Origin: an uncultured Bacilli bacterium
GTDB taxonomy: Bacteria; Bacillota_I; Bacilli_A; ML615J-28; CAG-313
Reading direction: 5' to 3'
DNA length: 64,000 bases
Assembly: GCA_934140285.1 (NCBI GenBank)
Contig: CAKPBI010000006.1
Location: 7,042 to 71,041, forward strand
Shown here in pieces: positions 55,222 through 64,000 of this stretch (its first letter is position 1; each line of letters opens with the position of its first letter). Below the pieces are notes generated by a model. It was given only the letters and a program-made list of their open reading frames with translations, made no database searches and had not been told where the DNA came from. The translations under genes were made by a program, and so were the position numbers.

Positions 55222-56319
55222 ATGATTATAGATTCTCATTTACATTTTTCCTTGCCATCTCTTGTTGAAGATGTACTAGAAGCCCTTGATTTAACAAACT
55301 GTCAGTATGGAAACTTAGTTGCACAAATAAACATGTATCAATCATCAGAAACTCTTGACTGTTTGTTTGCGAAAGCAAAATCAAATCACCGATTATATAC
55401 TTATGGTAGCTTAGATCCAACAGAATATATAAAAAGGACTAACATGGGTGAAAATCTAATAGAACATGTAAAAAAAATTATGAAATGTGGATGTGATGGC
55501 ATTAAAATGCTTGAAGGAAAGCCTGATGAAAGAAAAAGATTTCCTATCCCTGATTTTGATAGTGAAGAATTTGATAAATTATTTTCTTACTTAGAAAAAG
55601 AAAAAATCAACATCATCTGGCATGTTAATGATCCTGAAGAATTCTGGGATGAAACTAAAATACCAGAATGGGCTAAAAGAGAAGGTTGGTTTTATGATGA
55701 AAGTTATGTCAATAATCTTGATCAATATCGTCAAGTAGAAAAAGTCTTAAAAAAACATCCTAATCTTCACATTACATTTGCTCACTTTTTCTTTCTCTCA
55801 AAAAACTTAGAAAAACTTTCAAAACTATTTGATTCCTATCCTAATATATCAGTAGATATAACCCCAGGAATTGAACTATTTACCAACCTCTCTCAAAATA
55901 TTAAAGAAGCAAGAACTTTCTTTATTAAGTATGCCGACCGTATAATCTATGGAACTGACATATCTCATCTAAACACCGATACTGATCGTGAATTTAACAA
56001 AGAAGATGCCATCATAAGAGGAAATCTATGCTATAGCTTTCTAACGAAAGAAAGAGTAAACCTCAAAGGAAACGAAAAATCCCTACTTGGTAAAGAAGAC
56101 CTCGAAATCAATGGATTAAATCTCCCAAGTGAAATAGTAAAAAAAATATGTTATAGTAACTTCTATAACAAAAACGGACAACCTAAAGAAATTAACAAGG
56201 AAGAAATACTCCAAGAAATTGAAAGAGAAAGGCAAAGAATTACATTTTTATCAAAGTATTATAAATTTAAACCAGATTATACAAAATTAGATTGCTTAAA
56301 AACTTACTTTGAACAATAA
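55222..56319 (+). CDS. amidohydrolase-family (metal-dependent TIM-barrel hydrolase) protein
   Basis: The N-terminus MIIDSHLHF is the amidohydrolase_2 HxH motif. It is translationally coupled to the GH3 gene. Confidence 0.5.
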   Translation: MIIDSHLHFSLPSLVEDVLEALDLTNCQYGNLVAQINMYQSSETLDCLFAKAKSNHRLYTYGSLDPTEYIKRTNMGENLIEHVKKIMKCGCDGIKMLEGKPDERKRFPIPDFDSEEFDKLFSYLEKEKINIIWHVNDPEEFWDETKIPEWAKREGWFYDESYVNNLDQYRQVEKVLKKHPNLHITFAHFFFLSKNLEKLSKLFDSYPNISVDITPGIELFTNLSQNIKEARTFFIKYADRIIYGTDISHLNTDTDREFNKEDAIIRGNLCYSFLTKERVNLKGNEKSLLGKEDLEINGLNLPSEIVKKICYSNFYNKNGQPKEINKEEILQEIERERQRITFLSKYYKFKPDYTKLDCLKTYFEQ

Positions 56320-56345
56320 AATCATAAAAAAAATTATACCAATTA

Positions 56346-56374
56346 TTGACAGAATTTTTATACTATGGTATAAT
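56346..56374 (+). promoter_or_regulatory. consensus sigma-70 promoter TTGACA-17-TGgTATAAT starting a ~255-nt leader ahead of the paralog array
   Basis: TTGACA lies at 56346-56351 and TATAAT at 56369-56374 with an extended -10 TG. No long ORF is present until 56638. Confidence 0.55.
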
Positions 56375-56637
56375 TATGTTAAGGTTTGGGCCACCCATAA
56401 TTAATAAAAGATTAACTGGAGAAAGGCATTAATCAATTATTAATTATACAATTGAATATTAGTTAATCAAAATGATTAAATATTTGTATGCTAGGTAGAA
56501 TACGCTTTTGCCTCTGACGTAAGGGTAAAAGTCGTAGACTGCCAATAATAGGATGCAGGTTTTTAGTCATTTTTTAAATAATAGGACGCTTAAGCATATG
56601 CATATAATGAAAGAGAAAAAAGGAGAATAAAATAATT

Positions 56638-57261
56638 ATGGATAAAAAGAAAATTAATGTTAAAAAGATAATTAAAATCACTATTTTATTGATAATACTT
56701 ATAACAATTCCTACAACAATAATGTGTAGATCTAGTTGTATGTATTCAGAAAAAGGTCATTATAGAAGAATTCAAAAAAGAATAGAAGAAAGATTTATTG
56801 AAACTGGTGTACATAAAGAATATGAACTATACCCATTATATGATGAAAATGATAAATTAAAATATTTTGTAGTTGATTTTCCAACTAATTATCATATTAT
56901 AAGGATAAATAAATATGATTTAGGTTGCCTAGGCGTATCAATGTATACACTATCTATAAATAATCCATGGCAAAGATATGTCTTAGAAAATGGAGAAAAA
57001 GTATATGAAAAAGATAAAGATGGTAACGATATATTCTATAAACAAAGTCCATATAAAATAGCAGGAATAAAAGATGAAAAAAAATATTTAATTGAGGTTA
57101 GCCAAGGCTCAAGTTCAAGTTATGTTCCAGCAGTAAAAAGAGGAGACAAGTACTTAAATCTAATCTCAATGAAAGAAGAAGAAATAGTATTGAAATCAAA
57201 TGAACAAATAAATGAAACATGGACTATAAGTTGTATCTATAAGCCATATTTTGATTTATAA
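56638..57261 (+). CDS. paralog 1 of a 4-member tandem family: small N-terminally anchored secreted/lipo-protein, unknown function
   Basis: The signal or TM anchor ILLIILITIPTTIMC-RSSC is followed by the conserved core HYRRIQKRIEERFIETG...NPWQRYVLENGEK...VPAVKRGDKYLNLISMKEEEI. The first ~300 nt are identical to copy 3. Confidence 0.6.
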   Translation: MDKKKINVKKIIKITILLIILITIPTTIMCRSSCMYSEKGHYRRIQKRIEERFIETGVHKEYELYPLYDENDKLKYFVVDFPTNYHIIRINKYDLGCLGVSMYTLSINNPWQRYVLENGEKVYEKDKDGNDIFYKQSPYKIAGIKDEKKYLIEVSQGSSSSYVPAVKRGDKYLNLISMKEEEIVLKSNEQINETWTISCIYKPYFDL

Positions 57262-57290
57262 TAGTTATAAATAAAGTAAAGGAAATAATT

Positions 57291-57917
57291 ATGGAAAAAA
57301 AGAAAATTAATGTTAAAAAGATAATAAGAATAACTATTTTATTGATAATACTCATAACTATTCCTACAACAATAATGTGTAGGTCTAGTTGTATGTATTC
57401 AGAAAAAGGCCATTATAGAAGAATTCAAAAAAGAATAGAAGAAAGATTTATTACTACAGGATTGTATGAAGAATATGAACTATACCCATTATATGATGAA
57501 GAAGATAAACTAAGATATTTTGTTGTTGAATTTTCTCCTACTGACTATCGTGTAATAAGCATAAATAAATATGATTTTGGTTGCTTAGGTGCATCAATGT
57601 ACTCACTCTTTGAAACTAATCCATGGCAAAGATATGTCTTAGATAATGGAGAAAAGATATATGAAAAAGATAAAGATGGTAATGATATATTCTATAAACA
57701 AAGTCCATATAAAATAGCAGGAATAAAAAATGAAAAAAGATATTTAATTGAGGTTAAACAAGATTCTAATCTATTTTATGTTCCAGCAGTAAAAAGAGGA
57801 GATAAGTACTTAAATCTAATATCAATGAAAGAAGAAGAAATAATATTAGAATCAAAGAAAGAGATAAATGAATCATTGGATATCTACTTTTTTATCAAAC
57901 CAAGATTTGATTTATAA
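57291..57917 (+). CDS. paralog 2 of the tandem family
   Basis: It is about 85% identical to copy 1. It lies only 29 nt after copy 1, so it is probably co-transcribed. Confidence 0.6.
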   Translation: MEKKKINVKKIIRITILLIILITIPTTIMCRSSCMYSEKGHYRRIQKRIEERFITTGLYEEYELYPLYDEEDKLRYFVVEFSPTDYRVISINKYDFGCLGASMYSLFETNPWQRYVLDNGEKIYEKDKDGNDIFYKQSPYKIAGIKNEKRYLIEVKQDSNLFYVPAVKRGDKYLNLISMKEEEIILESKKEINESLDIYFFIKPRFDL

Positions 57918-58007
57918 TAAGTATAAAAAAACATATAAAACATTTTTATTTAAACGAGAAAAAACAAACAATTAATTGTTTGCATGAATAAAAAGGGAGT
58001 GTAAAAA

Positions 58008-58631
58008 ATGGAAAAAAAGAAAATTAATATTAAAAAGATAATTAAAATCACTATTTTATTGATAATACTTATAACAATTCCTACAACAATAATGTGTAGA
58101 TCTAGTTGTATGTATTCAGAAAAAGGTCATTATAGAAGAATTCAAAAAAGAATAGAAGAAAGATTTATTGAAACTGGTGTACATAAAGAATATGAACTAT
58201 ACCCATTATATGATGAAAATGATAAATTAAAATATTTTGTAGTTGATTTTCCAACTAATTATCATATTATAAGGATAAATAAATATGATTTAGGTTGCCT
58301 AGGCGTATCAATGTATACACTTTTTGAAACTGATCCATGGCAAAGATATGTCTTAGAAAATGGAGAAAAAGTATGTGAAAAAGATAAAGATGGTAATGAT
58401 ATATTCTATAATCAAAGCCCATATAAAGTAGCAGGAATAAAAGATGAAAAAAGATATTTGATGTGTGTTCAACAAGATTCTAATTTTAATTATGTTCCAG
58501 CAGTAAAAAGAGGAGATAAGTACTTAAATTTAATCTCAATGAAAGAAGAAGAAATAATATTAGAATCAAAGGAAGAGATAAATGAATCATGGGATATAAG
58601 AGATTATATTTGTTCACAATTTGATTTGTAA
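58008..58631 (+). CDS. paralog 3 of the tandem family
   Basis: The N-terminal half is identical to copy 1 and the C-terminal half resembles copy 2. An 18-bp palindrome CAAACAATTAATTGTTTG (57965-57982) lies upstream. Confidence 0.6.
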   Translation: MEKKKINIKKIIKITILLIILITIPTTIMCRSSCMYSEKGHYRRIQKRIEERFIETGVHKEYELYPLYDENDKLKYFVVDFPTNYHIIRINKYDLGCLGVSMYTLFETDPWQRYVLENGEKVCEKDKDGNDIFYNQSPYKVAGIKDEKRYLMCVQQDSNFNYVPAVKRGDKYLNLISMKEEEIILESKEEINESWDIRDYICSQFDL

Positions 58632-58719
58632 TAAGTATAAAAAACATATAAAAAACTTTTATTTAAATGATAAAAGCAAACAATTAATTGTTTGCATGAA
58701 TAAAAAAGGAGTGTAAAAA

Positions 58720-59349
58720 ATGGAAAAAAAGAAAATTAAAAAGATAATTAGAATAACCAGTTTATTAATAGTGATATTTGTATTGTTAGCGATACCTACT
58801 TTAAAAATGTGTTATCCACGTTGTATATATTCAGAAAAAGCTCATTATAGAAGAATTCAAAAAAGAATAGAAGAAAGATTTATTGAAACTGGTGTACATA
58901 AAGAATATGAGCTATACCCATTATATGATGAGAATGATCAATTAAAATATTTTGTTGTTGATTTTCCAACTAATTATCATATTATAAATATAAATTCATT
59001 TGATTATAGTTGTATTTCTGGTACATCATTATATTCACTATCTATAACTAATCCATGGCAAAGATATGTCTTAGAAAATGGAGAAAAAGTATATGAAAAA
59101 GATGAAGATGGTAATGATATATTTTATAATCAAAGTCCATATAAAGTTGCAGGAATAAAAGATGAAAAAAGATATTTAATTAAAATTAGACAAGGATCTA
59201 ACTCAGATTTTGTTCCTGCAGTAAAAAGAGGAGATAAGTATTTAAATCTAATATCAATGAAAGAAGAAGAAATAGTACTAAAATCAAATGAAGAAGTAAA
59301 TGAAACATTCTATACATTTTATTCACCAAAGCCACAGTTTAATTTATAA
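58720..59349 (+). CDS. paralog 4 of the tandem family (most divergent N-terminus)
   Basis: The anchor differs (MCYPRC), the C-terminal tail resembles copy 1 and the mid-region resembles copy 3. A 20-bp palindrome GCAAACAATTAATTGTTTGC (58676-58695) lies upstream. Confidence 0.6.
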   Translation: MEKKKIKKIIRITSLLIVIFVLLAIPTLKMCYPRCIYSEKAHYRRIQKRIEERFIETGVHKEYELYPLYDENDQLKYFVVDFPTNYHIININSFDYSCISGTSLYSLSITNPWQRYVLENGEKVYEKDEDGNDIFYNQSPYKVAGIKDEKRYLIKIRQGSNSDFVPAVKRGDKYLNLISMKEEEIVLKSNEEVNETFYTFYSPKPQFNL

Positions 59350-59417
59350 AAATATATGATAATTATTATATAAAAATGAATTTATATAAATGAAAATAAA
59401 AATTTAAGGAGTACAAT

Positions 59418-62400
59418 ATGAAGAGCATTATCACAAGAAATTTATTTAAATTAACACTAATTTTATTAAGTATAGTAACACTACTTTATATAATTAAACC
59501 ATCAAATGTAAATGCAAATGTAGGTGTAGATACATTAAACTCCAAAGGAGATGAAGAAATAGCAATCAAATATGAGAATGAACATAATTTATCTGATATT
59601 AAATTAATAAAAAATGCTACATATTTCAAAAATAACCCAAAGCATGGTAATAATGATGGAACTATAAACTCTAAGGGAACATGTACTACTGTTGCAATGC
59701 AACTTTTAATGGGGTATCATAATTATTATAGTTATAGAAAAATAATTCCTGAATATGGAAATGATGGAGAAAAATTTTTGGAGGATAATTATGGCGATTT
59801 ATTGGAACATCCATCAATAAATGATGAAGTAGGAGAAGGACAAGGAAAAGCCAGTATAGGAACAACAGATGATTTTTATCTTGAATTGATAGAATTAAAC
59901 GATGTATCACAAGGAACTGCTTTAGGACAAGCAATTGGCGTTGTTAAAGATGCAGCTGAAAAATTTGTGAATAAATATACAGATTTAACAGATGCTTCAA
60001 TAACTATTGATTCAGGGATATATGATGAGGCAGAAGCGTTATCGGAAATTAACAAGGACAATCCAATAATTCTAGGATATAATCCTTTTAAAACTGATGA
60101 TTATTCATTTCATATAGTAGTTGCATATGGATATGCGAAATACAATAATGTTGAAGGATATATAGTTCATTGTGGTTGGGGAGATTATAAAAACTATGCC
60201 TGGATTCCAGAAAGCTTAATTGCATTTAAAATTAAAATGAATGTTATACATAATCACAATTTACAATATACTGGTGAAACAGTGCAAGATAGTTATCGAG
60301 TATTACGATGCACTTCATGTGGGTATGAAGAACTAGAGTGTGTGTATCAATTAAATGAAGATGGAAATGCAATAACAGGTATAAAATATCCATTAAATGA
60401 AAATATAACAATTCCAGATAAAATATATAATAAAACTATTAATGTAATTTCTAATAATGCATTTTCACAAAATGCTGAAATAAAAAGAGTAGATTTTTCT
60501 GATTCACTTAATATAATTGGTGAAAATGCATTTTATAATTGTCCAAATTTAGAGTTAATAAACATAAGTGGTAATTTGCAAAGCATAGGAAAATCTGCTT
60601 TTAAAAATTGTCCAAATTTAACATATGTCAATAATTTCAGTAATATAAATACCATAGAAGAAAGTGCATTTGAGGAATGTTCTAACTTGAGAGCGGTTGA
60701 TTTTCCTTCAACGTTAATAAGTATAGGAAATTCAGCATTTAAAAATTGTTCAAAATTAAATTCTGCTTTAATGAAAGGAAATTTAAAAAATATTGGAAAT
60801 AATGCATTTGAAGGTTGTACATCTTTGTGGAGAGTTGAACTATCCGAAATGCTTGAAACAATAGGAGAATCTGCATTCAAAGGGTGTACAAGTTTAATTT
60901 TACTTGATATGAAAGATAATGTAATAAATATCAAAAAAAATGCATTTGAAGGTTGTGCATCTTTGAAAAACTTTACACTCTCAACAAGTCTTGAAACAAT
61001 AGGAGAATCTGCATTTAAAGGTTGTAAATTACTTAATAATATTACTTTACCAAATAGTCTAAAAACAATAGGTTCAAGTGCCTTTATGAATTGTGAGGGT
61101 CTTACAAGTATATCTATACCTTATCAAATTGAAATAATTGAGTCTAATGTATTTATAAATTGTACTTCATTACAAGAAATAACTATTCCAAATAATTGTA
61201 AAATAATTAAAGATTCAGCATTTAAATATTGTACAAGTTTAAATAAAATAAATATACCTAATACCTTACAAGAAATAGGTGTAAGTGCCTTTGAACATTG
61301 TGAGAGTATAAAAAACATTGAACTACCAGATTCAATAACAAAAATAGGGGAAAATGCATTTTATAGGTGTCTTAAACTTGAAACAATTCATTTGCCAGAA
61401 AACCTTCAAATAATTGAAAACAATACGTTTTATGGCTGTAACAAAATTGTAACAATTCATTTACCTGAAAATCTTCAAGCAATTAAAAACAGAGCTTTTT
61501 ATGGTTGTAGTGGTCTAAAGAATATATCTCTTCTTTTCAAAGTTGAAGAAGTAGGAGATGAAGCATTCTCAAGATGTTTTGAATTAGAAAGAGTATACAT
61601 TAAAAAAGAAACAGGTAGATTAACATCATTTGGGGTAAATGTTTTTGAGTTTACATCTAGAGATTTAAAGATTATAGTCCCTTTAAATAAATATGTTGAA
61701 TATTCAATTAGTAGTAATCTAACAACTTACAAAGATATAATTTTACCAAGTAATTATATTAATGAATTAACATTAAACTGTAAGAGTAATTTAAATAATA
61801 CCATCTCTCTTACAAGTGGATATAATAAACTTTATATTTTAAATATTGATTGTGCTAAAACATATAAAATACTTGCTGATGCGTCATCTGATGTAAATAT
61901 TAAAATATATAAAGATGATTTAACTAAAATATATGATGATAATAATATCAGTTACCCATATTTAAATGTTGGTATGTATTATTTATCAGTAGAATATGTT
62001 GATGAAACATCATCTGGTGATCTTAATCTTAATCTTACATTAAGATGGAATACTAATGATACCACCTTAACTATGGGCTCAAATGATATTAAGAGTGCGT
62101 TACATAAGACTACAAATGATTTATATCATGGTTACTTTGAATTAATAGTAACTAGAAGTAATTCAGTATATAAATTTACTTTTAATGCGGGTAATAATAT
62201 AGTATATCCAGAAGGTTGCATTAAAGTATATAATGGCTATGATAGAACTAACTTAATGACTCGTTTAGGCGGAAATTCTCTCGCAAAAACTGAAACTAAC
62301 GAAAATCAAATGTATGTATTTTTTAATACAGATAATACTAGATGCAATATAACTATTGAACTTCCATATGATACTTATAATTCAATAACATTTGAAGTTG

Positions 62401-63395
62401 AAGAAATAGATGATTATCAAACCGATTATCTAAATAGTCTTGCTAGTGTATGCTTTGATGAAATATTATCAAATAGAACTGCCCAAAGTACATTTAAAGA
62501 AGTAACTATTAGCCATCGTTCTAAAATTCAATTAGACATTGTGACAAGTGGAACTATTACAAATAATATTCCTATTTATATTATAAGTAAAGAACGAGAA
62601 GGAGGACTAGACATTGGTGTAGTTAGTTATGTATTAACAACCAAACTAAGTGAATGTATTACTATAGATCATAGCGGTCCAGTATTTACCAGTATTTTAG
62701 ATCCTGGAACTTACTATATTGGGTATACCAAAAATAATAATAATGTAAATATTAGTTTTGCTTTAAAAAGACTTGTAAATCAAGAACTAAATATTGGTGG
62801 AACCTTGGTTGCGGACCCAGCTAACGACTTAGGTTTCATCGCAGGAAGCGAAGTAACCTTAAATGGAGGAAGCTTTAGAGGTAATACAATAACTGAAGGC
62901 TTTACAAGACATCTCTATTTAATGGTTGAAAATGTTTTAGAAGAACCAATGTCAAGATTAGAATATGACTGGTATTCAAGTAATGAAAATGTTGCTAAAG
63001 TAACTGCTTATGGTACAGTACTTGCATTGAACGTAAATGCTGATACTGATGTTACCATCTACGCAGTAAATAAAGATGATCCATCAAGAGTATATTTAAA
63101 AACCTTTACCATCAAGAAAGAAACAGAAACTGATCCAATCTTTATATCTTGTGAAATGTCATATTCTTATGCACAAGAAAATGGAAGATACACCTTAGAA
63201 TTAGATTTTAGTAATAGTCCATTCCCATATCTAGCTTACTATGACTATAGTATAGAAGATAATGATAACATTGGAGCAGCTATAGTTGGTTTTGGCTTTA
63301 TGTATTCAAATAGACCAGGAACTGTAGAAATCACATTAAATTATCGATTAAATAGAAGAGTCTTTATTTACATTACTTTAACAATAACTGAATAA
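59418..63395 (+). CDS. large secreted/cell-surface protein: N-terminal papain/C39-like cysteine peptidase domain, BspA-type leucine-rich repeat array, C-terminal beta-rich domains
   Basis: It has a signal peptide. GTCTTVAMQLLMGYHNYY has a Cys-peptidase-like Cys, followed by HIVVAYGY and HCGWGD. About 20 repeats of the type IGxxAFxxCxxLxxIxIPxxL follow, which is the LRR_5/BspA type. A terminator lies at 63399-63428. Confidence 0.65.
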   Translation: MKSIITRNLFKLTLILLSIVTLLYIIKPSNVNANVGVDTLNSKGDEEIAIKYENEHNLSDIKLIKNATYFKNNPKHGNNDGTINSKGTCTTVAMQLLMGYHNYYSYRKIIPEYGNDGEKFLEDNYGDLLEHPSINDEVGEGQGKASIGTTDDFYLELIELNDVSQGTALGQAIGVVKDAAEKFVNKYTDLTDASITIDSGIYDEAEALSEINKDNPIILGYNPFKTDDYSFHIVVAYGYAKYNNVEGYIVHCGWGDYKNYAWIPESLIAFKIKMNVIHNHNLQYTGETVQDSYRVLRCTSCGYEELECVYQLNEDGNAITGIKYPLNENITIPDKIYNKTINVISNNAFSQNAEIKRVDFSDSLNIIGENAFYNCPNLELINISGNLQSIGKSAFKNCPNLTYVNNFSNINTIEESAFEECSNLRAVDFPSTLISIGNSAFKNCSKLNSALMKGNLKNIGNNAFEGCTSLWRVELSEMLETIGESAFKGCTSLILLDMKDNVINIKKNAFEGCASLKNFTLSTSLETIGESAFKGCKLLNNITLPNSLKTIGSSAFMNCEGLTSISIPYQIEIIESNVFINCTSLQEITIPNNCKIIKDSAFKYCTSLNKINIPNTLQEIGVSAFEHCESIKNIELPDSITKIGENAFYRCLKLETIHLPENLQIIENNTFYGCNKIVTIHLPENLQAIKNRAFYGCSGLKNISLLFKVEEVGDEAFSRCFELERVYIKKETGRLTSFGVNVFEFTSRDLKIIVPLNKYVEYSISSNLTTYKDIILPSNYINELTLNCKSNLNNTISLTSGYNKLYILNIDCAKTYKILADASSDVNIKIYKDDLTKIYDDNNISYPYLNVGMYYLSVEYVDETSSGDLNLNLTLRWNTNDTTLTMGSNDIKSALHKTTNDLYHGYFELIVTRSNSVYKFTFNAGNNIVYPEGCIKVYNGYDRTNLMTRLGGNSLAKTETNENQMYVFFNTDNTRCNITIELPYDTYNSITFEVEEIDDYQTDYLNSLASVCFDEILSNRTAQSTFKEVTISHRSKIQLDIVTSGTITNNIPIYIISKEREGGLDIGVVSYVLTTKLSECITIDHSGPVFTSILDPGTYYIGYTKNNNNVNISFALKRLVNQELNIGGTLVADPANDLGFIAGSEVTLNGGSFRGNTITEGFTRHLYLMVENVLEEPMSRLEYDWYSSNENVAKVTAYGTVLALNVNADTDVTIYAVNKDDPSRVYLKTFTIKKETETDPIFISCEMSYSYAQENGRYTLELDFSNSPFPYLAYYDYSIEDNDNIGAAIVGFGFMYSNRPGTVEITLNYRLNRRVFIYITLTITE

Positions 63396-63425
63396 AAAAG
63401 AAAAGGTAGCTTAAACTACCTTTTT

Positions 63426-64000
63426 TTAAACGCCTTGTAAGATATTAAGATTTCTTAGTTCAGGATCTTTGATTTGATTATTAACAGAATATGAATGAGT
63501 ATCTAGATTATTACATTTTTCTTTGGTGTAATTTTTATCAATTAATTCACTGATTATTCTTTCTGATATTAATGAGATTAATTCTTGTTTTTTAATGATG
63601 GTTTCTTTATCATTATTGTTTAGAATTAAAAAGGATAAGTCATCTTTTAAGTCACTTAATAATGTTAAGTTATCAAGTCCTTTAAACATCCATTTATAAT
63701 ATGGCATAAGTGTATTATTTAAAAGATAAATACAGTTTATAGCATGTTTTACAAATTCAAATAAAGATACTTGTGCACCACTTAAATCATTTCTTTGAAT
63801 CATTCTTGTAAAATTATACATTCCTGATTGATGCATTAAAAATAAGTTTCCCGCAAGTTTTTTTAGGATAACATCTTGAGGAATATTTTTTAGGTTATTT
63901 CTTACAATACTAAATACTCCAAGATCATCTTTAAATACTTCACCATTAGTTGCTTCAAGAATGTAGAATTCTTCAACTTTCAACCAATCAGTTAAGGTTT
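63426..64000 (-). CDS. hypothetical protein, 5' end probably beyond window
   Basis: The frame stays open from the TTG start-like codon at 63983 to the window edge. It shares a bidirectional terminator with the LRR gene. There is a faint resemblance to nucleotidyltransferase-associated helical domains. Confidence 0.3.
   Translation of the reverse strand, partial: TLTDWLKVEEFYILEATNGEVFKDDLGVFSIVRNNLKNIPQDVILKKLAGNLFLMHQSGMYNFTRMIQRNDLSGAQVSLFEFVKHAINCIYLLNNTLMPYYKWMFKGLDNLTLLSDLKDDLSFLILNNNDKETIIKKQELISLISERIISELIDKNYTKEKCNNLDTHSYSVNNQIKDPELRNLNILQGV

Follow-up and report, generated by a model that had tools for sequence, protein, structure and literature searches.

In the window analyzed here, a stretch of 64,000 nucleotides (nt) from an uncultured low-G+C gut Bacilli bacterium (contig CAKPBI010000006.1), a large gene on the + strand (59418..63395) encodes a 1325-residue protein that carries a putative papain-like cysteine peptidase head on a stalk of BspA-type leucine-rich repeats (LRRs), and lies immediately downstream of four paralogous genes for small proteins with predicted membrane anchors, hereafter family 1. 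The explanation that we favor, to which we give about an even chance and which is modeled on known protease/inhibitor operons, is that a single transcription unit would produce a protease that has no prodomain and, in trans, its cognate membrane-tethered inhibitor or folding chaperone. The evidence for this proposal includes a head whose predicted fold and invariant residues point to clan CA, and a linkage between family 1 and the peptidase gene that recurs across taxa.

The open reading frame (ORF) of the large gene is uninterrupted, exactly as in an initial annotation made from the sequence, and begins with an ATG preceded 7 nt upstream by a Shine-Dalgarno sequence (AAGGAG). On inspection of the translation, the N terminus MKSIITRNLFKLTLILLSIVTLLYIIKPSNVNA, which is followed by NV, has the n/h/c layout of the Sec signal peptide that had been expected there, with predicted cleavage after VNA33 (residues 1 to 33, 59418..59516). 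The putative peptidase domain (residues ~47 to 276, 59556..60245) starts ~13 residues past this site, and the residues in between belong to its fold. It is followed by a small β-rich module (residues 277 to 326, 60246..60395), by 17 perfectly phased LRRs of 23 residues each (residues 344 to 734, 60447..61619), and by a C-terminal region of ~590 residues to which no fold was assigned (61620..63392). In Pfam, the LRR_5 model (PF13306) matches the protein with 407 bits against a cutoff of 27.7 (E value of 1.1e-123), which makes the stalk a genuine BspA-type LRR region, although the count of about 20 repeats proposed initially was slightly high. The β-rich C-terminal domains proposed at the same time are plausible, but the only match to this region is to Big_2 at residues 1184 to 1220, with scores of 18.5 to 20.2 bits that fall below the 22.8 cutoff, and no sequence relative of it was found in the PDB. 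The same region occurs at four other loci (L002, L004, L035, and L036) with 41 to 47% identity. By inspection, the protein has no LPXTG motif, C-terminal transmembrane segment, or lipobox. Exact copies of it are present in several gut metagenome-assembled genomes (MAGs) labeled "Bacilli bacterium," and public records of its close relatives say only "leucine-rich repeat domain-containing protein." A closely related MAG (L001, 9522-13718) has the orthologous gene in three pieces, ORFs of 166, 472, and 769 residues, through either pseudogene formation or an assembly error; there, the head is 64 to 77% identical to that of the window and the C-terminal region 98% identical, and recombination may have replaced the head.

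The initial annotation had likened the N-terminal domain to C39-like, papain-fold peptidases and had advised a structure prediction, which bears this out. An AlphaFold2 model of the head, based on an 18-sequence alignment, is confident (predicted local distance difference test score of 84.8 and predicted template modeling score of 0.87) and shows the two-lobe α+β fold of papain. When this model was compared to the PDB using Foldseek, essentially only papain-like cysteine proteases were returned (cathepsins S/H/F/K, actinidin, and staphopain), with probabilities of 0.9 to 0.99 and low TM-scores of 0.25 to 0.47, and we therefore assign the fold to clan CA without a single closest solved family. 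The three motifs on which the initial assignment had been based are all present, at residues 87 to 104 (GTCTTVAMQLLMGYHNYY), 231 to 239 (FHIVVAYGY), and 250 to 257 (VHCGWGDY). Cys89 (59682-59684) opens the long central helix (56-71 of the model), and His232 (60111-60113) stands immediately before a core β-strand (200-209 of the model). Both residues, as well as G238, are conserved in all 120 full-length representatives of the domain, while His251 (60168-60170), within IVHxGWG, is conserved in 97% of them. The head thus displays a conserved Cys at a helix N terminus, a conserved strand-linked His, and a third polar residue 15 to 20 residues later, as is expected of clan CA. We propose that Cys89 is the nucleophile and His232 the general base, in the canonical papain arrangement; the choice of the residue that orients His232 is presumptive. 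A loss of the Cys/His dyad on structural alignment would have indicated a noncatalytic domain, which is not what was seen, since Cys89 and His232 are invariant in the 120 representatives and their placement is papain-like. These findings point to a divergent clan-CA cysteine peptidase, for which we infer proteolytic activity. The small module that follows the peptidase lobe has an HxH...CxxC signature in which H278, H280, C298, and C301 are each conserved in 93 to 99% of the 120 representatives, in both subfamilies described below, and it is probably a structural zinc site, judging from this pattern. The known C10 and C39 domains have no such module, which in the window protein lies between head and stalk.

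The head family is large. While only 26 relatives, none of them annotated, came from a word-indexed search of 5.8 billion proteins, an exhaustive profile search returned 481 representative clusters (at 50% identity) with E values ≤ 1e-3, 152 of them with E values ≤ 1e-30. The 120 full-length representatives fall into two subfamilies. Type A, with 92 members including the window protein, has a domain start at residues ~50 to 100, and type B, with 28 members, has it at residues ~160 to 240, after an extra N-terminal region of ~150 to 200 residues. Peptidase_C39_2 (PF13529, gathering score of 24 bits) is matched by 10 of the 12 type-A relatives at E values ≤ 1 (best, 9.6e-6) and by the type-B proteins P0246 and P0254 (26.8 and 25.1 bits), whereas the window protein itself is below detection. 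The Pfam scan advised in the initial annotation therefore recovered LRR_5 in this protein, but neither Peptidase_C39_2 nor Big_2 above its cutoff. Peptidase_C10 (PF01640) shows no match to the window protein at E values ≤ 10, weak matches to 2 of the 12 type-A relatives (best E value of 0.0018), and matches to 4 of 10 type-B relatives (best, 6.5e-8), with P0246 scoring 30.7 bits against a gathering score of 26. On these profile matches, Peptidase_C39_2 and Peptidase_C10 (the streptopain family) are the nearest sequence neighbors of the head family, which is to be seen as a superfamily related to Peptidase_C10 rather than as a member of it. The C-x10-YHNY and H-x-V-x-x-x-G ... GWG motifs are presumably comparable to those of streptopain. 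The head is thus a new, unannotated family in a known clan, carried on an ordinary LRR stalk.

Comparison with characterized or annotated systems sets the protein apart. Putative C39-like peptidases (such as PDB 3erv) belong with Peptidase_C39_2, whose members are mostly uncharacterized, so that a match to it says little about function. The bacteriocin-processing peptidases of MEROPS family C39, which form the N-terminal domain of exporters that cleave double-glycine leader peptides, differ from the window protein, which has neither a double-glycine leader substrate nor an ATP-binding cassette transporter in its context and does not belong to that family. Identity to the surface-associated multidomain clan-CA proteases IdeS (C66), Cwp84 of Clostridioides difficile, and TDE0362 of Treponema denticola is only 7 to 10%, their accessory domains differ, and these systems, unlike that of the window, have no conserved upstream partner family. 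With the BspA family, the window protein shares its 17 canonical 23-residue LRR_5 units, but known BspA-type proteins are adhesins and lack an enzymatic head. A literature search on cysteine proteases linked to LRRs in Christensenellales yielded papers on protozoan BspA and nothing else.

The four upstream paralogs noted in the initial annotation are all present on the + strand, at 56638..57261 (paralog 1, 207 residues), 57291..57917 (paralog 2, 208 residues), 58008..58631 (paralog 3, 207 residues), and 58720..59349 (paralog 4, 209 residues, directly upstream of the protease gene and the copy used for AlphaFold2 modeling). They are 70 to 78% identical to one another and belong to a family with 136 matches in our collection, for which no Pfam match was found among 35 members. 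The N terminus of paralog 1 is a membrane anchor or resembles a lipoprotein signal, and across the family the N-terminal hydrophobic helix carries an L-x-G-C lipobox in several members and no Cys in others, where it would be an uncleaved transmembrane helix; the four copies in the window show T-I-M-C, which is atypical. From these N termini, family 1 is predicted to be exported and N-terminally anchored, and would therefore share a compartment with the secreted enzyme. The conserved blocks of the family are YPLYDENDKLxYFxVEFEPxG, WxRY, SPYKVAGIxDEKRYLL, a nearly invariant PAVKRGDKYLNLISM (residues 166 to 180 of paralog 4 and the equivalent sites in the other three), and a C-terminal F-[DN]-L. 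The 12 residues that precede this terminal motif are hypervariable between the window copies (57214-57261, 57870-57917, 58584-58631, and 59302-59349, all +), with 45 nonsynonymous versus 9 synonymous-only codon differences in 72 comparisons, which suggests either diversifying selection or a specificity determinant. Neither sequence nor fold comparison matched family 1 to the known inhibitors I69 (Spi/propeptide) and I57 (staphostatin), and the family shows no homology to cystatin or chagasin either.

Two further observations concern these paralogs. Within PAVKRGDKYLNLISM, R170-G171-D172 falls at the turn between two predicted strands, so that a near-invariant RGD stands at a predicted hairpin tip; if exposed on an exported protein, it could be a protease-binding loop or an integrin-type motif. 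In the sister strains L001 (6915-8734) and L037 (1744-3563), the array consists of five family-1 copies together with two unrelated lipoprotein genes (178 and 206 residues), while the window array lacks copy 3 and both lipoprotein genes (in the region of ~57917-58008). Since copy content differs between strains and the copies are mosaic, the array recombines.

We then consider how widespread this gene arrangement is. A genome scan, using one genome per species, found 35 loci with the head domain, all in uncultured gut MAGs (from human, mouse, chicken, rabbit, and others) of Christensenellales, other Clostridia, Bacilli, Anaeroplasmataceae, and Erysipelotrichaceae. When loci L001 to L036 were searched by tblastn with the four paralogs, a family-1 gene was found immediately upstream of the peptidase gene on the same strand, in one to four copies, in 31 of the 36. 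Of the remaining five, L022 and L030 have essentially no upstream DNA and L034 to L036 are divergent or sister types, and for these reasons we count the linkage among assessable type-A loci as 31/31. It holds even though the peptidases are only 32 to 49% identical and the flanking genes are unrelated. The same pairing is seen at L037. Approached from the side of family 1, a type-A peptidase gene lies directly downstream in three of the five places sampled (L045 to L047). A small, adjacent, co-oriented partner gene conserved across taxa, which is the hallmark expected of a protease/inhibitor operon, is therefore found here. The initial annotation had suggested that the paralogs might be cognate partners such as inhibitors or chaperones, and the 31/31 linkage supports seeing them as partners, the role itself being our proposal.

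Family 1 was not found at the type-B loci examined (L035, L036, and L038 to L044). The extra N-terminal region of type-B enzymes contains the motif EYLYNLDxSxDYIYVEFExxGYAV...LEYS..G..PY...KYYxGPxNY, and these loci have one to three adjacent copies of a different lipoprotein family of ~170 residues, hereafter family 2. The divergent L034 enzyme, with an N-terminal leader of only ~53 residues, also has a family-2 gene directly downstream. Family-2 genes were located at L034 (2066-2596), L036 (8704-9408), L038 (3438-3956), L039 (3481-3975), L040 (2359-3966), L042 (301-876), L043 (3470-3997), and L048 (6923-8149), and some arrays contain both families. No Pfam match was found for family 2. The idea that it might be a distant homolog of family 1 was rejected, as hhalign gave a probability of 0.3% once signal peptides were removed, earlier weak matches of hidden Markov models (HMMs) having come from the hydrophobic N termini; the suspicion that it might be PrcB_C-like received no support from Pfam.

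The precedent for our proposal comes from the C10 and C47 proteases, which are made as zymogens and whose genes adjoin, and are cotranscribed with, those of dedicated inhibitors (PMC2873492). These inhibitors include Spi, a propeptide analog, the staphostatins, and the exported or lipoprotein Bfi of Bacteroides fragilis, which is sometimes present in two copies, and they are thought to protect the producer (PMC2873492). The window shows the same logic of a protease with an adjacent partner as SpeB/Spi, Bfp/Bfi, and staphopain/staphostatin (MEROPS C47/I57). In contrast to SpeB (MEROPS C10) and Bfp, however, the window protein does not match PF01640, lacks the N-terminal inhibitory prodomain of a C10 zymogen, and is fused to 17 LRRs and a ~590-residue tail. 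The partner differs as well, since family 1 is about twice the size of Spi and Bfi, membrane-anchored, encoded upstream, and tandemly amplified, and it resembles neither Spi/I69 nor the staphostatins in sequence or fold.

According to the mechanism that we propose, four exported, membrane-anchored family-1 proteins would be coencoded with the secreted 1325-residue enzyme and would supply in trans the prodomain function that it lacks, in contrast to streptopain-type zymogens and to type B. Binding to the peptidase head on the outer side of the membrane, they would act as inhibitors and/or folding chaperones, possibly also as a tether, which would keep the enzyme latent or cell associated and shield the producer's own surface. 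The LRRs and the C-terminal region would most likely serve to bring the protease to a protein or surface ligand in the gut, a role that fits with the finding that relatives have different C-terminal modules (Flg_new, Big_2, PPC, and FG-GAP). Proteolysis, binding by the partner, its inhibitory or chaperone action, and the existence of such a target are all steps that we infer. A bolder version, which we regard as possible rather than probable, is that of a split zymogen, in which, within this branch of C10/C39_2-like proteases, the prodomain would have been detached into a separate, anchored gene, tandemly amplified, and diversified; its products would fold the LRR-protease, hold it latent, and tether it at the cell surface, with the hypervariable C-terminal tails and the loops of the paralogs tuning release or specificity. 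If true, gut Firmicutes would have, across hundreds of clusters of the family, an inhibitor/chaperone of new fold and a novel means by which an extracellular protease is controlled and displayed.

Several findings weigh against this proposal. The head (residues 34 to 326) has no match in Pfam, NCBIfam, or PDB sequences, with phmmer and two PDB profile searches returning noise. Orphan family-1 genes or arrays exist at L048 (5081-8149) and L049 (5953-6717), with no peptidase gene within 6 kb, and because of them the partner family may also act independently of the protease. Since type-B enzymes have both the extension and an adjacent family-2 lipoprotein, family 1 could be the analog of that lipoprotein and not of a prodomain. 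As for a relationship between family 1 and the type-B extension, hhalign of full alignments placed YPLYDENDKLxYFxVEFEPxGY opposite EYLYNLDxSxDYIYVEFExxGYAV, at the same relative position, with a probability of 93%, but this dropped to ~20% after hydrophobic N termini were trimmed (E value of ~1e-3 over 26 to 46 columns, versus 0.06 to 0.5 for unrelated controls), and we treat this homology as a lead only. No fusion of the two was detected when 138 peptidase-family proteins were searched with a family-1 HMM, the one weak match being confined to the first ~100 residues, which include the signal or transmembrane segment.

Other explanations need to be weighed against a trans-acting inhibitor or chaperone. 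Family 1 might consist of membrane anchors or docking subunits instead of inhibitors, within a two-component surface adhesin/protease in which paralogs offer more or alternative docking sites. This would suit a large protein that has a cleavable-looking signal peptide but none of the usual surface attachment signals (LPXTG, C-terminal transmembrane segment, or lipobox), as well as the N-terminal anchoring of family 1 and the strictness of the gene linkage, and it overlaps with our favored explanation because it is compatible with an inhibitor-like tether. It does not account, however, for a partner that goes specifically with the peptidase head, whichever C-terminal modules are present (LRR_5, Flg_new, Big_2, FG-GAP, and PPC), or for the lack of family 1 at loci whose enzyme has an N-terminal extension, and we think docking alone unlikely. 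That array and large gene are unrelated neighbors is an idea for which a few orphan arrays might speak, but its chances are close to nil; it is effectively refuted by a same-strand pair with gaps of tens of bases at every assessable locus, in different orders and with differing flanks.

Family 1 might otherwise be made of substrates, or of independent variable surface antigens or adhesins, which the peptidase would process or shed, for example near the hypervariable tail. A copy number that ranges from one to five between strains and loci, mosaic copies indicative of recombination, the excess of nonsynonymous differences in the 12-residue tails, the near-invariant RGD at a predicted hairpin tip, and the orphan arrays without a peptidase could all be read in this way. 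Yet conservation is strong in the rest of family 1, even between distant taxa, and PAVKRGDKYLNLISM hardly varies, which is a better fit to a conserved binding function than to an antigen, and the constant association with the peptidase gene also argues against it, making this explanation quite improbable. We likewise see little probability that the head is a papain-fold enzyme with another chemistry (transglutaminase, amidase, γ-glutamyl transpeptidase, cell wall hydrolase, or isopeptidase) or a noncatalytic binding domain, since its only sequence-level neighbors are the peptidase families Peptidase_C39_2 and Peptidase_C10, its C-x10-YHNY and H-x-V-x-x-Y-G-Y ... G-W-G motifs are presumably streptopain-like, and a pseudoenzyme would hardly keep Cys89 and His232 without exception.

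Taken together, the partner family appears not to have been described previously, and this applies to its fold and membrane anchor, to its tandem copies with their hypervariable tails, and to the way in which it seems to stand in for a cis prodomain. Host-associated bacteria use secreted clan-CA proteases (SpeB, IdeS, interpain, and Bfp are examples) to cleave immunoglobulins, complement, and matrix proteins, and because of these activities an LRR-targeted relative in common commensals is a candidate for proteolysis of host proteins or between bacteria. The module is widespread, with the 481 clusters found above and gut MAGs from human, mouse, chicken, and rabbit. Neither the head nor the partner family has a Pfam or NCBIfam model. 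Defining both would improve the annotation of many gut genomes, and the upstream partner is a testable candidate for a protease-controlling protein of a new kind, whose fold is undescribed.

The arrangement of signals around the five genes is consistent with cotranscription. Intergenic gaps within the unit are 29 to 90 bp. The only promoter-like site that matches the sigma-70 consensus at 12 of 12 positions in the 56200-63600 region is TTGACA-17 nt-TATAAT with an extended -10 TG (56346..56374, +), within the 318-bp gap upstream of paralog 1. It is this perfect match alone that carries weight, because the region holds no excess of promoter-like sites overall (58 found versus 65 expected). At the other end, a G+C-poor 10-bp hairpin flanked by runs of A and T (63401..63424), likely a bidirectional terminator, lies between the large gene and a convergent ORF (63426-63983). 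From these signals, 56346-63424 is predicted to be one operon containing the four paralogs and the large gene.

Between the promoter-like site and paralog 1 is a strongly structured 5' leader of ~260 nt (56380..56637, +). Its minimum free energy is -66.3 kcal/mol, compared to -41.75 ± 3.9 for shuffled sequences (z = -6.26), and none of the 200 shuffles folds as well. No Rfam family matched it, even at relaxed thresholds. Homologs were found in only two close strains, with 98% identity, and in no distant ones. The leader may be an undescribed cis-regulatory RNA.

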